Below, in pieces: positions 16,940 to 60,801 of a stretch of DNA of 64,000 nucleotides. Within the stretch, counting starts at the first letter, position 1, and every line of letters starts with the position of its first letter. This DNA is from an uncultured Hyphomicrobiales bacterium (lineage in GTDB: Bacteria; Pseudomonadota; Alphaproteobacteria; Rhizobiales; Xanthobacteraceae), in assembly GCA_964459765.1 (NCBI GenBank), contig CAYWNY010000003.1:12861-76860 (forward strand), written 5' to 3'. The notes under the pieces are model-generated. The model did no database searches. It was not told the origin of the DNA and was given only the letters and a program-made list of their open reading frames with translations. A program made the translations under genes and the position numbers.

Positions 16940-17563
16940 TCAATCGGAGCCGACCATGCGGGCGACGAGCGCCATGCGCACAAGATCCGACAGGCTGCCC
17001 GCCTGCATCTTGTTCATGAGATTGGCGCGATAAATCTCGACGGTACGCGGGCTGATGCCGAGATCGTCGGCGATCTGCTTGTTCGCCCTTCCCGCCACCA
17101 GCCCCACCAACACGTCGCGCTCGCGGTTCGAGAGCGCCGCCAGCCGGCTTTCGATATCGGCGCGCTCGGCCAACTTCTTGGCCTCGTGATCGTGCTGCTT
17201 GAGCGCCGAACGCACGCTCGCCAGCAAGACTTCGTCGTCGAACGGTTTTTCCAGAAAATCGACCGCACCGATCTTCATGGCCTCGACCGCCAGCGGCACA
17301 TCGCCGTGACCGGTAATCACGATCACCGGCACCTCAATCTTCAATTCCCGCAAACGCCGTAGCAGATCGAGCCCGCTCAAGCCGGGCATGCGCATGTCGC
17401 TGATCACGCAGCTCAAACCTTTGACCGGAAGCTTATCGAGAAAGGCGCCGGCCGAAGAGTAGCTTTCCACATCGAGCTGCACGGTGCGTAACAGGAAGAT
17501 CAGCGATTCGCGCAATGCTTCGTCATCGTCGATGACGTGCACGATTCCCCTGTCAACCGACAT
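16940..17563 (-). CDS. fixJ: Response regulator FixJ (receiver + LuxR/FixJ HTH)
   Basis: The sequence runs [21 protein letters not shown]...[13 protein letters not shown]...[36 protein letters not shown]. The start at 17563 overlaps the fixL stop by 11 nt. The longer track ORF N-terminus is out-of-frame fixL sequence. Confidence 0.93.
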
Positions 17564-19073
17564 CGCCGACCTCCTCCTTGCTGACTGTCGGCAAGGTGAA
17601 GCTGAACACGGTCCCTCCGCCCGGATTGGATCGCGCGGCGATGGCGCCGCCATGCGCCTCGACGATGGTGCGCGAAATCGACAGTCCGACCCCCATGCCC
17701 TGGCGCTTGGTGGTGATGAATGGCTGGAATAGCTGGTCGCTGACCTCTGGCGCAATGCCGGTGCCGGTATCGCTGACGCTGATCTCGGTCATGTCGTCAG
17801 CGGCGAGCGCGGTGGCGACGATCAGGTCCCGTCGATCGCAACTTTCCATCGCCTCGATGCCGTTGCGGATCAGATTGAGAATGACCTGCTGAACCTGCAC
17901 TTTGTCGGCCAGCACGAAACCGGTGCCCGGATCGAAATCGAAGCGCACGCGCACGCCCTTGTCCTTGGCGCCGACCAAGGCCAGTGCGCTCGCTTCCTCC
18001 ACGAGCTTGCGCACGTCTTCGACTCGACGTTCGCTTTCGCCGCGCGCAACGAAGTCGCGCAAGCGCCGGATCACTTGCCCGGCGCGCAGCGCCTGCTCGG
18101 CCGCCTTGTCCATGGCCTCGCGCAAAATCCCCGCGCGTTCGTCGGAACTGTCCTCAAGCAGCCGCCGCGATCCCTTCATGTAATTGGCAATCGCCGACAA
18201 TGGCTGATTGAGTTCGTGCGCCAGCGCCGAGGCCATTTCGCCCATCGCGGTCAGCCGCGAGACGTGAACGAGCTCCGACTGCAATTCCTGCAGGCGCGCC
18301 TCGGTCTTCTGGCTCTCGGTCAAGTCGCGGATGAAGCCGGTGAAGAAGCGTCTATGGCCGGTCTTGACCTCGCCGACGCTTAATTCGAGCGGAAAGGTCG
18401 AGCCGTCCCTGCGTTCACCCACGACTATGCGGCCGATGCCGATGATGCGCCGCTCGCCGGTCATTTTGTAGCGCTGCAGATAACTATCATGGTCGTTGCG
18501 ATAGGACGACGGCATGAGCACCTTGACGTTTTGTCCCAAAACCTCGGCCGCCGTATATCCGAACAGCCGCTCGGCGGCCGCGCTGAACGATTGCATGGCG
18601 CCGCGCTCGTCCATGACGATCATGGCATCTGGAACAGTATCGAGGATCGATTTGACATGAGCTTCGCCGGCGATGGCGGCGTCGGCACACGTCGACGCCG
18701 CAATCCGCGAGCGGCGCAACAGGTCGCCCCGCCAAGACGCGCCCAGGCCGACCAGAACAAAAACGAACGCATTGACGATGTCGGCGTTCGTCAGCGCACG
18801 GTGGCTGTAGATCAGAAACTGTCCCGATATCAAGCCGAGAGCGGTCGCCAGAACGCCTGGACCCCAGCCGCCGAATGCCGAACCGATAAGGATGGCCGGG
18901 AAAAAGAAAAGATACGAAGCCTGCCCCTCAAGCTCGCTCCACAGCGCCACGCGGAGGAGAAGACCTGCGCCGATCGCGCCAACGGTAAGGCCGTAGCGCT
19001 CGACAATTCGCCGTGCAGCGGAGGAGCTTGGCGCCGGCTGGGCGGAGTGCAAATGCGGAGCTGCCTCTACCAT
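17553..19073 (-). CDS. fixL: Oxygen-sensor histidine kinase FixL (haem-PAS)
   Basis: 506 aa with N-terminal TM helices. The PAS domain carries the FixL haem pocket signature [50 protein letters not shown]. The H-box is HELNQPL, followed by an HATPase domain. Confidence 0.93.
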
Positions 19074-35802: not shown

Positions 35803-35827
35803 GGAACCCAACAAAGCATTCGTCGTT
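35803..35827 (+). promoter_or_regulatory. EcfG-type general-stress promoter GGAAC-N16-CGTT
   Basis: GGAAC (35803-35807), then CCAACAAAGCATTCGT, then CGTT (35824-35827). It lies about 45 nt upstream of ATG 35874. Confidence 0.7.
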
Positions 35828-41659: not shown

Positions 41660-42049
41660 TCAGAGCCCATCGGTCGCGATGCCGAACGCGACTAGCGACG
41701 CGCGCAGCGTCGAGAACTGATAGGGCTTGGAAAGGACGGAGAGCTTCTCATAACGAGCGAGCTCGGCTGCGGCCGTCTCGGCAGACTGTCCGGATGCGAC
41801 GATGATCGGCAGATCGCGCCGCATTTGCTTAAGCTCGACGACTAAGTCGGCTCCGTCGCGGTCCGGCAGACCGAGATCGACGATCGCGATCTCGAAGTCC
41901 GAAATCTCGGCCGCCGCCAACGCCAATGCCCGCGAAGCCGACGGCGCTTCCGCAACCTCGAAACCCATTTCACGCAGAGCGTCCGCGGCAAACATCGCCA
42001 CGAGCGCTTCGTCCTCCACCAAAAGGGCGTATGGGCATCCGTTGCGCAT
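41660..42049 (-). CDS. Single-domain response regulator (receiver only)
   Basis: The sequence runs MRNGCPYALLVEDEALVAMF...AIVDLGLPDRDGADL...SKPY and is 129 aa. An exact EcfG promoter lies about 115 nt upstream. Confidence 0.85.
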   Translation of the reverse strand: MRNGCPYALLVEDEALVAMFAADALREMGFEVAEAPSASRALALAAAEISDFEIAIVDLGLPDRDGADLVVELKQMRRDLPIIVASGQSAETAAAELARYEKLSVLSKPYQFSTLRASLVAFGIATDGL

Positions 42050-42169
42050 GAGACCACATGAAAGGTTTGACGAACCGCGCATTCTCCACCGGACGTCGTA
42101 TAAAGACCAGCGCGCTCACGAAGCCGAGACCGGAGACGGCAGGATTCGGCCGCTGTCGAGCCTTGGGAA

Positions 42170-42194
42170 AACGCCTAAAGTTCCGCTCGGTTCC
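42170..42194 (-). promoter_or_regulatory. EcfG-type general-stress promoter (minus strand) GGAAC-N16-CGTT
   Basis: The plus strand reads AACG (42170-42173), N16, GTTCC (42190-42194). It faces the receiver gene 41660..42049. Confidence 0.65.
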
Positions 42195-42218
42195 GGGTCG
42201 CAAATCAGCGCGCGGACC

Positions 42219-42244
42219 GGAACCAAGGCGCCGGCCGGCGCGTT
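42219..42244 (+). promoter_or_regulatory. EcfG-type general-stress promoter GGAAC-N17-CGTT
   Basis: GGAAC (42219-42223), then CAAGGCGCCGGCCGGCG, then CGTT (42241-42244). It sits back-to-back with the minus-strand promoter 25 nt away. Confidence 0.7.
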
Positions 42245-42249
42245 GAGCC

Positions 42250-42333
42250 ATTGTCCGACTGCACCTCCCCCCTCGCCCCCCGTGCGCAGTCGGGAAGAGA
42301 GGCGCTGCCTGCAGGCAGCGCCTCTTTGTCTTT
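42250..42333 (+). ncRNA. Candidate EcfG-dependent small RNA with C-rich loop (GsrN-like), copy 1
   Basis: The unit starts about 6-8 nt after the promoter -10. Stem CCGACTGC (42255-42262) pairs with GCAGTCGG (42286-42293) around the 23-nt loop ACCTCCCCCCTCGCCCCCCGTGC. A 12-bp terminator hairpin AGAGGCGCTGCC-TGCA-GGCAGCGCCTCT (42298-42325) and TTGTCTTT follow. The only ORF across it is the non-native N-terminal extension of track ORF 42251..42622, whose real product is CsbD from ATG 42422. Confidence 0.5.
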
Positions 42334-42421
42334 GGCGGCGGCCCGTTGCGCAACTCGGAACCCCTCGCGCATCCCGTTGTTTAAACCGGGTGAAGGCAAC
42401 TTTACCCGGGGACAAAAGACC

Positions 42422-42622
42422 ATGAACTGGGATCGCATCGAAGGAAATTGGAAGCAGTTGAAGGGTCGCGCGCAGCAAAAGTGGGGCAAGCTCACCGACG
42501 ATGACATCAACGTCATCGAGGGCAACCGCACCGAGCTGTCCGGGCGCCTGCAAAATCGTTACGGCATCGCCAAGGATGAAGCCGAACGTCAGATCGACAC
42601 GTGGATGAAATCCATCGGCTGA
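42422..42622 (+). CDS. CsbD-family general stress protein
   Basis: MNWDRIEGNWKQLKGRAQQKWGKLTDDDINVIEGNRTELSGRLQNRYGIAKDEAERQID is a canonical CsbD repeat pattern. The product is 66 aa. Confidence 0.92.
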   Translation: MNWDRIEGNWKQLKGRAQQKWGKLTDDDINVIEGNRTELSGRLQNRYGIAKDEAERQIDTWMKSIG

Positions 42623-42663
42623 CGCCAAAGCCAACAGGATCGAAGCAAAGCGGCGTCGCGCCG

Positions 42664-43464
42664 TTATGCCGTGGCGCGACGCTTCTTGTTGCTGGCATTC
42701 TGTTCGAAAAAGAGGACCTGACTTATCAGCGCCGACACCGCGGCGGGCTGATAAGGCTTGGCGATCAGGAACGCGGGCTCCGGTCGCTCGCCGGTCAGAA
42801 ACCGCTCCGGATAAGCGGTAATGAAGATAACCGGCACCTCAAAACGATGGAGCATCTCGTTGACGGCATCGAGGCCGGAACTGCCGTCCGCCAACTGGAT
42901 ATCGGCGAGGATCAGGCCCGGGCGTTTTTGCGCCGCCAATTTCAACGCGTCATTTCTCGTACGCGCCACGCCTACAACGCGGTGACCCAGGCTTTCAGCC
43001 AGTGACTCGAGATCAAGGGAGATAAGAGCTTCGTCCTCGATGATGAGCACATCGGTCGCGATCTGATCGGCAAGCTCGCGGCCGAACTGATCGATGAGCG
43101 CGCGCAGCGTGGTGACGTCAACGTCGAGGATACGGGTGGCCGACTCTTCTCCGAACATTTCCAGCGAAGTCAGCAAAAACGCCTGCCTCGGCAGCGCGCT
43201 GATTTGCGCAAGACGCCGCTCAGGCGGAAAGGTAGCGGCGTCACGGGCCTCCGCATTGAGCGGAACCGAATTCCAGATCCGCGTGAAAGTGCGGAACATG
43301 TCCACGCGAGTGTCGCCGTCTGCACTGACGAGGGTAGGCTGTTTGACCACGGCTTCCAGCGTGGCCGCTACGTAGGCATCGCCGGATTCCTGACTGCCGG
43401 TCAGCGCTCTGGCGTAACGGCGCAGGGCTGGAAGATGGCCTCTAACCGACTGAGCTAATTGCAT
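42664..43464 (-). CDS. phyR: Anti-anti-sigma response regulator PhyR (sigma-like domain + receiver)
   Basis: 266 aa. The N-terminal ECF-sigma-like region (LPALRRYARALTGSQESGDAYVAATLE...LPRQAFLLTSLEMF) is followed by a receiver (VLIIEDEALI...ILADIQLADGSSG...KPY). It is divergent from nepR. Confidence 0.95.
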   Translation of the reverse strand: MQLAQSVRGHLPALRRYARALTGSQESGDAYVAATLEAVVKQPTLVSADGDTRVDMFRTFTRIWNSVPLNAEARDAATFPPERRLAQISALPRQAFLLTSLEMFGEESATRILDVDVTTLRALIDQFGRELADQIATDVLIIEDEALISLDLESLAESLGHRVVGVARTRNDALKLAAQKRPGLILADIQLADGSSGLDAVNEMLHRFEVPVIFITAYPERFLTGERPEPAFLIAKPYQPAAVSALISQVLFFEQNASNKKRRATA

Positions 43465-43534: not shown

Positions 43535-43603
43535 GGTGCCGGAGGAACTATTTGTTTTGGCTGGCTTTCTCCAATACCCAGAAACAAGTATAAGCCATAT
43601 GCC

Positions 43604-43831
43604 ATGGCAGACCAGGGGGAGTTGTTGAAGAAGCCGCAAAGGCGTGCCGCGATCGCACAAGCGGCCGTCCGGGACGCGAAGGGGCGCTTGGGGCCGGAAA
43701 TTCAAAATAAGATCGGTCAACATTTGCGTGGCCTCTATTCCGACATCGTCGACCAAGGCGTGCCCAACCGTTTCGCGGAGCTTTTACGCGACTTGGACGA
43801 TTCGGACCTGGACAAGCCGAAGCCGGAATAG
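43604..43831 (+). CDS. nepR: Anti-sigma factor NepR
   Basis: The ATG at 43604 gives a 75-aa product with the NepR core IGQHLRGLYSDIVDQGVPNRFAELLRDL. It is divergent from phyR. Confidence 0.88.
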   Translation: MADQGELLKKPQRRAAIAQAAVRDAKGRLGPEIQNKIGQHLRGLYSDIVDQGVPNRFAELLRDLDDSDLDKPKPE

Positions 43832-43939: not shown

Positions 43940-43964
43940 GGAACGAGTGGACCAATTGGCCGTT
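43940..43964 (+). promoter_or_regulatory. EcfG-type general-stress promoter GGAAC-N16-CGTT
   Basis: GGAAC (43940-43944), then GAGTGGACCAATTGGC, then CGTT (43961-43964). It lies about 285 nt upstream of the HWE kinase ATG at 44252. Confidence 0.65.
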
Positions 43965-57543: not shown

Positions 57544-58618
57544 AGCGCGCTGCGGCACTTGCGCTTCCTCGGCCACGAGGCGGAGCTGCGGCGCGGATGC
57601 CCGCAGCAGCCCGCGATAAACCGCAAGATAATCCTGCGCCATGCGTCGCGCGGTAAAGCGCTCCTCGAAACGCCTGCGGATATTGTCACGCGAAAGCTGG
57701 CTAAGGCGATCGACGGCGCCGATGGCCCCGGTTTCGTCTTCGACGACGAAACCGGTCAGGCCGTCTTCGATAATTTCGGACGCGGACCCGCGGTTAAACG
57801 CAATGACCGGCGTACCGCAGGCCATGGCTTCGATCATCACCAAGCCGAATGGTTCGGGCCAATTGATGGGAACCAGGAGCGCGACCGCGCCGCTCAGGAA
57901 CGCGGACTTCTCGCGGTCGTTGATCTCGCCGATATACTCGACGCGTACCGATTGGATCATCGGCCGGATTTGCTCTTCGTAATACGTCTGATCGACGGGG
58001 TCGATCTTCGCGGCAACCTTGAGCGGCACGCCGCAGTGCTCGGCAATGCGGATCGCGCGGTCGAGGCCCTTCTCCGGTGCGACGCGGCCCAAAAAGGCGA
58101 AATAGGAAGGCTTGATCGGTCTGGGCTCCAGCAGGTCCGCCGGCAGGCCATGGTGAACGGTGCGCACCCAATTGGCCTGTGGCAGCGGCCGCCGCTGCGA
58201 ATTCGAGATCGAGACCACCGGAAGCGACGAAAACACTTCGAACACCGGTTGGTGCTCGGGCAGATCAAGCCGGCCGTGCAGGGTGGTGATGAACGGCGTC
58301 GCCTGCCGCGAGAACAGCGAGAAAGGATAATAATCGAGGTGAAAGTGCAGAAAATCGAAATCGCCGGCGCGGCGATATACCTGCTCCAACATCATCATGA
58401 AGCGCATTAGGGTCGCGGACCGCGCCGTCGAGGCGAAGCGCCCGCGGCCAAACCTTAGCCAGTCGAGCCGACGTCCGCGAGTCGCCACTCGCGAAGAGGG
58501 TCACGTCGTGACCGAGCGCGATGAGTTCCTCGGTCAGCCAAGATACCACTCTCTCCGTGCCGCCATAGAGCTTCGGGGGAATGGCCTCGGTAAGCGGGGC
58601 GACCTGCGCAATGTGCAT
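57538..58618 (-). pseudogene. GT4-family glycosyltransferase, one frameshift
   Basis: The N-terminal part MHIAQVAPLTEAIPPKLYGGTERVVSWLTEEL...VRDPNAL is in ORF 58265..58618. The remainder MMMLEQVYRR...FHLDYYPFSLF...EPFGLVMIEAMACGTPV is in ORF 57538..58488. The length is 3n+1, and removing one T near 58400 (CTT to CT) restores the frame. Confidence 0.8.
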
Positions 58619-60637: not shown

Positions 60638-60662
60638 GGAACGAACGGCCGCGGCCCGCGTT
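60638..60662 (+). promoter_or_regulatory. EcfG-type general-stress promoter GGAAC-N16-CGTT
   Basis: GGAAC (60638-60642), then GAACGGCCGCGGCCCG, then CGTT (60659-60662). It lies 22 nt after the ABC exporter stop, and no plus-strand gene follows. Confidence 0.65.
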
Positions 60663-60668
60663 GCCATT

Positions 60669-60747
60669 ACGGACGGGGTCCTTCCCGCCTCAGCCCCCCA
60701 ATCCCCGTCCAGGAGCCCCGCGCGCACTCGCCGGGGCTCTTCGTTTT
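60669..60747 (+). ncRNA. Candidate EcfG-dependent small RNA with C-rich loop (GsrN-like), copy 2
   Basis: Stem GGACGGGG (60671-60678) pairs with CCCCGTCC (60703-60710) around the 24-nt loop TCCTTCCCGCCTCAGCCCCCCAAT. A terminator follows: GAGCCCCG (60713-60720) pairs with CGGGGCTC (60732-60739), then TTCGTTTT. The architecture and the loop core CCTC(A)GCCCCCC match the unit at 42250-42333. Confidence 0.5.
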
Positions 60748-60801
60748 GGGGAACCCTCATTGTCTTGCGGGCGCCACCACTGCCTTCGCTGACTGCCGCG
60801 A

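Follow-up and report, generated by a model that had tools for sequence, protein, structure and literature searches.

The window, by which we mean the whole 64-kb stretch of DNA analysed here, contains a core general stress response locus whose gene order, confirmed with Pfam, is CHASE3 histidine kinase, AI-2E transporter, single-domain response regulator, the RNA element with which this report is concerned, csbD, phyR, nepR (43604-43831), PAS-HWE kinase and Crp-type regulator (Table 1). The 3′ end of the predicted small RNA (sRNA) at 42333 and the phyR stop at 42664 are 331 nt apart on opposite strands with csbD in between, and the csbD/phyR junction has a hairpin of its own (42652-42683). Sites of the form GGAAC-N16-17-CGTT occur 11 times in the window against 1.2 expected, a number that none of 100 shuffles reached. 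Besides the site that heads the RNA element, they are found at 35803, 37360, 42170, 43510, 43940, 47647, 51825, 52295, 57897 and 60638, and they precede genes for a small secreted protein, a DUF1328 protein, the single-domain receiver, PhyR, the HWE kinase, an LTXXQ protein, a trehalose phosphatase and an ASRT-family protein, of which the DUF1328, LTXXQ, trehalose phosphatase and ASRT genes are typical of EcfG regulons. The site at 57897 seems to lie inside a gene and may be due to chance. The nepR gene is not followed by ecfG; the next gene is that of the PAS-HWE histidine kinase, which has its own GGAAC-N16-CGTT (43940-43964), and the same order is seen in contigs of the same species. The sigma factor of the locus must be encoded elsewhere. 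The promoter of nepR (43546-43569) appears to have a non-canonical -10 box (GGAAC-N15-GCTT), and the GCTT variant of the -10 box is also present upstream of several sRNAs of the family described below, for example in loci L045, L058 and L028.

Table 1. Features of the RNA element, its neighbours and the second site in the window
Feature	Position	Strand	Basis or remarks
Single-domain response regulator gene	41660-42082	-	Pfam Response_reg
EcfG-type promoter of the single-domain response regulator, divergent	42170-42194	-	Back-to-back with the sRNA promoter
EcfG-type promoter of the sRNA	42219-42244	+	GGAAC 42219-42223, 17-nt spacer, CGTT 42241-42244; read from sequence
Predicted sRNA transcript, ~80-85 nt	42250-42333	+	Matches to models R1 and R2, fold; both ends inferred
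SL1, 5′ stem-loop	42254-42294	+	Stem 42255-42262 with 42286-42293, loop 42263-42285
Intrinsic terminator	42296-42333	+	Hairpin 42296-42327, 14 bp, 4-nt loop; 3′ arm enters UUUGUCUUU (42325-42333)
EcfG-type promoter of csbD, separate from that of the sRNA	42357-42381	+	GGAAC-N16-TGTT; read from sequence
csbD, 66 aa, downstream neighbour	42422-42622	+	PF05532 in gene calls of same-species contigs
phyR, convergent with the sRNA	42664-43464	-	PhyR Pfam domains
Copy 2	60638-60751	+	GGAAC-N16-CGTT 60638-60662, hairpin, terminator

An earlier note on this DNA, made from the letters alone, had described an exact GGAAC-N17-CGTT promoter followed by an 8-bp stem that presents a 23-nt C-rich loop, and both are confirmed here to the nucleotide. 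The stem of this 5′ hairpin, SL1, begins ten bases after the CGTT of the promoter and pairs CCGACTGC with GCAGTCGG (also written CCGACUGC and GCAGUCGG); a U-G pair between 42254 and 42294 can lengthen it from 8 to 9 bp. The loop, ACCTCCCCCCTCGCCCCCCGTGC (also written ACCUCCCCCCUCGCCCCCCGUGC), has 16 C among its 23 nt (~70% C), contains CCCCCCUCGCCCCCC, which is an instance of the family motif CCCC-U-(0-2 nt)-CCCC, and is the presumed seed region. The 12-bp GC hairpin that had been placed at 42298-42325 is indeed a strong terminator, but the ViennaRNA fold makes it a perfect palindrome of 14 bp, in which 42296-42309 pairs with 42314-42327, and its GC-rich core is 11 bp long. The U tract that it enters is interrupted, and some read-through into csbD is therefore possible. 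Over the 84 nt from 42250 to 42333 the minimum free energy is -41.9 kcal/mol (z = -5.4), with none of 200 shuffles equally stable, and the centroid fold leaves the entire SL1 loop unpaired. By our estimate the transcript would start 5-8 nt past the -10 box and end inside the U tract. There is no ATG within the unit 42219-42333, and the sole plus-strand ORF across it, 42251-42622 with a TTG start, is an upstream extension of csbD; this extension had been called non-native, in agreement with the gene callers, which start csbD at the ATG at 42422.

The phylogenetic depth of the element was assessed in 80 loci around relatives of PhyR, one genome per species, taken from among the matches listed; the best PhyR identity among those matches was 67%, and the relatives listed belong to Xanthobacteraceae MAGs, Pseudolabrys, Rhodoplanes, Bradyrhizobium, Nitrobacter, Afipia and Tardiphaga. 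A scan for an EcfG promoter together with a C-rich stretch yielded 11 loci of the same layout, and the covariance model R1 was aligned from those 11 related loci only, with the window left out. This independent model matches the window at 42245-42335 over its full length (model positions 1-96 of 96; 44.9 bits, E 3e-11), far better than chance would give. That the element is a self-contained unit from promoter to terminator is supported in silico. The broader model R2 scores the sRNA of the window at 55.2 bits and, as a control, gave no hit over 24 bits in a control set of 394 kb, taken from unrelated loci of similar soil bacteria. Full-length R1 matches with E < 1e-5 are present in 41 of the 80 phyR-anchored loci, which include at least ten Bradyrhizobium species, two Rhodoplanes, Afipia, Tardiphaga and Xanthobacteraceae MAGs; the other 39 phyR loci, mainly from Pseudolabrys, gave no family member within 6 kb. 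Weak to moderate matches to the family model (~20-40 bits) were also observed in some Pseudolabrys-type loci on the other, upstream side of phyR (L010 574-670, L016 4679-4774, L017 4470-4558 and L002 3581-3676, plus strand), and at least the one in L010 has no GGAAC in register. These may represent a relocated or divergent subfamily.

The family alignment comprises 42 sequences, that is, the 41 loci and the window, in 41 distinct rows. In this alignment 94.3% of the cells are paired, against 27-46% when the partners are slid by 1-3 columns, and these percentages are somewhat inflated because the alignment was fitted to the structure of the model. Compensatory changes are found in 17 of the 20 base pairs, and none of 500 shuffles attained the observed values; the same two helices had been obtained in an earlier analysis with MAFFT and RNAalifold. 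Helix 1 is 97.5% paired over the 41 distinct sequences, a value subject to the same inflation, with compensatory changes in 4 of 7 pairs, and helix 2, the terminator, has them in 13 of 13. The window itself adds compensatory changes in SL1 that are unique to it (G-C to A-U and C-G to U-A). It is a divergent member, with a longer loop and two stem pairs altered by compensatory substitution, and scores 45-55 bits versus 70-97 for most of the others. Ten contigs of the same species, retrieved by an exact CsbD look-up, are identical across the RNA and thus carry no covariation information; their only differences lie ahead of the promoter, at two positions and in two of the contigs.

The promoter, the position and the loop are conserved along with the helices. 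GGAAC lies in a fixed register upstream of 41 of the 42 members, and the -10 box, which occurs as CGTT, GGTT, GCTT or (C/A)GTC, ends at the first position of the model; the window fits this register, with its CGTT ending at 42244 and its R1 match starting at 42245. Most members (33 of 42) are no more than 1 kb away from the phyR stop and run convergently with phyR. The SL1 loops range from 14 to 27 nt; on average 61% of their bases are C and 8% are G, and 37 of the 42 contain the motif CCCC-U-(0-2 nt)-CCCC.

The element is very probably a real gene for a small regulatory RNA of ~85 nt that is switched on by the general-stress sigma factor, and we consider it likely that 42219-42333 is an independent gene whose product acts in trans as an sRNA of the alphaproteobacterial general stress response. 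According to the mechanism that we propose, PhyR would free sigma-EcfG from NepR, and RNA polymerase carrying EcfG would initiate in vivo at GGAAC-N17-CGTT. The transcript would then form the 5′ hairpin, presenting the 23-nt cytosine-rich loop, and transcription would end at the strong intrinsic terminator. The loop, ACCUCCCCCCUCGCCCCCC, would be the seed, including a CACCUCC stretch at its start, the same string as in the ribosomal anti-Shine-Dalgarno. Its partners may be the G-rich leaders or Shine-Dalgarno regions of mRNAs, whose translation or stability would change on pairing, and the result would be a post-transcriptional arm added to the EcfG regulon, as GsrN provides in Caulobacter.

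The targets of such an RNA can be named only as candidates. RNA-RNA interaction prediction inside the 64-kb window gave no outstanding site for the loop of the element (loop 1), the best one having -32.0 kcal/mol and being weaker than those of most shuffled loops (z = +1.0). The translation start of nepR falls below the 5th percentile of windows from its own locus in 15 of the 42 loci and at the 10th percentile for loop complementarity in the window, in both cases measured against random windows and not against other ribosome-binding sites. In five Bradyrhizobium loci (L074 7753-7792, L067 7789-7830, L061, L065 and L076) the divergent neighbour encodes a secreted protein of ~128 aa to which no function is assigned, and the Shine-Dalgarno region of that gene has AUGGGGCG(A)GGGGG, which is complementary to the sRNA loop UUCCCCCCUGCCCCAU. 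By this complementarity the secreted-protein gene is a candidate conserved neighbouring target in Bradyrhizobium, and is offered as a lead only.

It could be argued that a conserved EcfG-driven RNA exists here which does not act through pairing of its loop with mRNA at all, and which would bind a protein, serve as a sponge or have a mainly local role, for example as a convergent or bidirectional terminator that shields phyR from transcription nearby. This would be in keeping with the unusually fixed position of the RNA, convergent with phyR at less than 1 kb, with the want of a convincing loop 1 target in the window and, for an insulator, with the palindromic terminator hairpin, which would fold on either strand. 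However, in the window csbD separates the RNA from phyR and that junction is served by its own hairpin; moreover, an insulator would have no need of the EcfG promoter and the C-rich loop, both of which are conserved, and exposed C-rich loops are a recurrent type of seed in base-pairing sRNAs (PMC5869019). We regard a function of this kind as rather unlikely, and favour the trans-acting, base-pairing sRNA.

The relation of the element to csbD deserves separate consideration, since the alternative named in the earlier note was a terminator-attenuated leader of csbD, in which the hairpins would control read-through from the promoter at 42219. The gene starts 86 nt past the U tract on the same strand, the tract is interrupted, and the tandem of sRNA and csbD recurs in five related loci. 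Nevertheless, csbD is downstream in only 6 of the 42 members (the window, L007, L023, L032, L034 and L060); the remaining 36 have no csbD there, and most stand directly opposite the 3′ end of phyR. Each of the six tandem loci has, between the terminator and the start codon, a GGAAC-N16/17-xGTT that belongs to csbD; in the five other than the window this is GGAAC-N16/17-(C/G/T)GTT in the same place, and in L030 and L037 csbD has such a promoter in the absence of the RNA element. This makes the RNA a transcription unit of its own. Nor is any alternative anti-terminator pairing conserved, and on the grounds of synteny and of the promoter that csbD has for itself we rejected the leader interpretation, which we now judge improbable. 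Finally, that a promoter-like motif and a terminator have come together by chance, or that the element is a small protein-coding gene, is scarcely credible: both motifs are short and the TTG-initiated ORF formally crosses the element, but the independent model matches with E 3e-11, both helices covary, the terminator ends no other plus-strand gene because the upstream gene is divergent, the loop indels in the family are not multiples of three, and the unit has no ATG of its own, the ORF being the upstream extension of csbD that gene callers omit.

The independent sRNA gene invites comparison with GsrN. GsrN of Caulobacter is an RNA of ~100 nt that depends on sigma-T and pairs, through its C-rich 5′ loop, with the G-rich leader of katG; it is processed endonucleolytically to a stable 5′ isoform of 51-54 nt, is stabilized by Hfq and activates katG (PMC5869019). 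Its homologues by BLASTn are confined to Caulobacteraceae, in which, other than in C. crescentus, gsrN adjoins ecfG-nepR-phyR (PMC5869019). GsrN (ccna_R0081) and the element of the window are alike in having a consensus GGAAC-N16/17-CGTT promoter for sigma-T/EcfG, a length of ~85-105 nt, a 5′ stem presenting a run of six C with G at its flanks (GCCCCCCG in both), which in the element is predicted to be unpaired, and an intrinsic terminator. They differ in topology, however. The 10-bp 5′ stem of GsrN closes a 16-nt C-rich strand together with a nested hairpin, forming a multiloop, and GsrN has a further single-stranded region before its terminator, whereas the element consists of two simple hairpins only. 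With the gsrN sequence taken from the supplementary file of the published study (PMC5869019), nhmmer with the family profile gave a best E of 0.17 in the Caulobacter gsrN locus, on an unrelated stretch, and blastn-short of both copies from the window against gsrN gave identities of 9-10 nt only. All that is shared is a promoter stretch, GGAACCAAGG, which holds the -35 box, and the 9-nt CGCCCCCCG in the loop. Homology to Caulobacter gsrN was accordingly rejected on the nhmmer and blastn-short results. What the earlier note had called GsrN-like holds for the promoter, the predicted exposure of a C-rich 5′ loop and the terminator but not for sequence or 5′ topology, and the layout in the absence of homology to gsrN makes the RNA GsrN-like on paper and not a demonstrable member of the GsrN family.

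A closer precedent is found in the same study, in which the vicinity of the general stress response locus was predicted to hold GsrN-like genes in Bradyrhizobium diazoefficiens and Rhodopseudomonas palustris (Tien et al., 2018, Fig. 9A; PMC5869019). In the account accompanying that figure, the genes were called "solely" from their position and an EcfG site, with no structure, alignment or family model (PMC5869019). The predicted genes, as described there, and the family reported here are alike in taxonomic group, in position by phyR and in the upstream EcfG site. With no fewer than ten Bradyrhizobium species in the family, the two sets of genes are very probably one and the same, matched by their description and not by coordinates. 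In the literature on EcfG sRNAs and on Bradyrhizobium we found no characterization of a phyR-linked sRNA, and neither the loop sequence nor the phyR and ecfG locus tags were found in those portions of the supplements to the B. japonicum dRNA-seq paper that could be searched as text.

Several other stress-related RNAs share individual properties with the element. The CcsR 'cuckoo' RNAs of Rhodobacter are RpoHI/HII-dependent and have CCUCCUCCC loops, and both these and RsaE/RoxS of the Firmicutes have as their seeds exposed C-rich loops that resemble the anti-Shine-Dalgarno, and are controlled by either an alternative sigma factor or a stress regulator; their promoter type, gene context and sequence are nevertheless all different from those of the element. 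In enterobacteria, the sigma-E-dependent MicA, RybB and MicL exemplify how sRNAs within its own regulon provide an ECF sigma factor with a repressor, or post-transcriptional, arm, but in comparison with the element their sequences are unrelated, the sigma factor belongs to another group and the seeds lie at the 5′ end instead of in a hairpin loop. Rfam 15 gave no match at gathering thresholds in the whole window and, at 42100-42500 with E up to 10, nothing but chance terminator-like matches. In 11 family loci the same search, which included the CcsR and RsaE/RoxS families, returned only one tRNA and one fluoride riboswitch, both elsewhere in the loci. The riboswitch (L054 9030-9092; 42 bits, above the gathering score) is a few kb from phyR in Bradyrhizobium macuxiense and is unrelated to the sRNA.

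The earlier note had also claimed that the same layout recurs at 60638-60747. A promoter, a C-rich hairpin and a terminator are present there (copy 2, Table 1), with the stem GGACGGGG/CCCCGTCC closing a C-rich loop of 24 nt, UCCUUCCCGCCUCAGCCCCCCAAU (60678-60701; fold z = -3.1), but its reading as a clear second copy is not supported, given its borderline score and our failure to find an orthologue. With default filters it was reported by neither R1 nor R2; with the filters off it scored 15.0 bits with R1 and 19.6 bits with R2 (E 0.005), the second best score in the window, and the R2 alignment begins directly after its CGTT. Copy 2 is flanked by an ABC transporter gene and a convergent acyl-CoA dehydrogenase gene and is not near phyR. 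An exact pattern search over 90 loci gave no orthologue, nor did a search by way of the acyl-CoA dehydrogenase in 80 metagenome loci with up to 90% identity, and the synteny around copy 2 is already broken in the closest metagenome locus. It is plausible that copy 2 is a lineage-specific sibling or distant paralogue, and not an established copy. Its loop has a 23-pair complement at 17086-17115 (minus-strand transcript) with a duplex energy of -46 kcal/mol, and 60 shuffled copy 2 loops across the window gave a mean of -30.6 kcal/mol (sd 2.4) and a best value of -36.2 kcal/mol. The complement falls within the stretch that codes for the GerE/HTH part of a FixJ/LuxR-type response regulator (gene at 16940-17755, minus strand), and this gene adjoins a PAS histidine kinase gene (17553-19073). 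Going by this complementarity, the FixJ/LuxR-type coding sequence may be a target of the copy 2 RNA.

A more far-reaching proposal, which we put forward as a speculation with little probability, is that the element is an independently evolved EcfG RNA, not homologous to GsrN and resembling the anti-Shine-Dalgarno, that is kept beside phyR through feedback on the core switch, for example by occluding a G-rich ribosome-binding site of nepR, and that its sibling copy 2 links the general stress response to a FixL/FixJ-type system through 23-bp pairing within a coding sequence. If this were true, the ECF-sigma stress systems of different alphaproteobacterial orders would repeatedly invent RNAs with C-rich loops and retarget them by evolution of the loop.

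On balance, the interpretation given in the earlier note is partly supported, being largely right about the kind of element and wrong only if taken to mean that the RNA is homologous to GsrN. What the window carries is a new, divergent member of a putatively EcfG-driven family of C-rich-loop sRNAs that has been predicted in print and is uncharacterized. To our knowledge, GsrN of Caulobacter is the only EcfG-dependent sRNA that has been studied experimentally, and for the agriculturally important Bradyrhizobium group there was until now a prediction based on position only. That prediction becomes a defined RNA family with a covariance model, covariation, a conserved promoter and a fixed site by phyR; the family has no Rfam entry, and the member in the window comes from an uncultured soil lineage. 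The model should be useful to annotators, and it supplies a concrete gene for experiments on the post-transcriptional arm of the general stress response. The concept itself is unchanged, as the idea, the promoter logic and the C-rich seed have already been published. Aside from this family, a unit with an EcfG promoter was observed in a Xanthobacteraceae MAG (L025 12566-12690, plus strand), in which two successive hairpins with the C-rich loops UUUUCCCCUCA and CAUCUCCCUCCCCCC are followed by a terminator, and which may be another type of EcfG-dependent sRNA.
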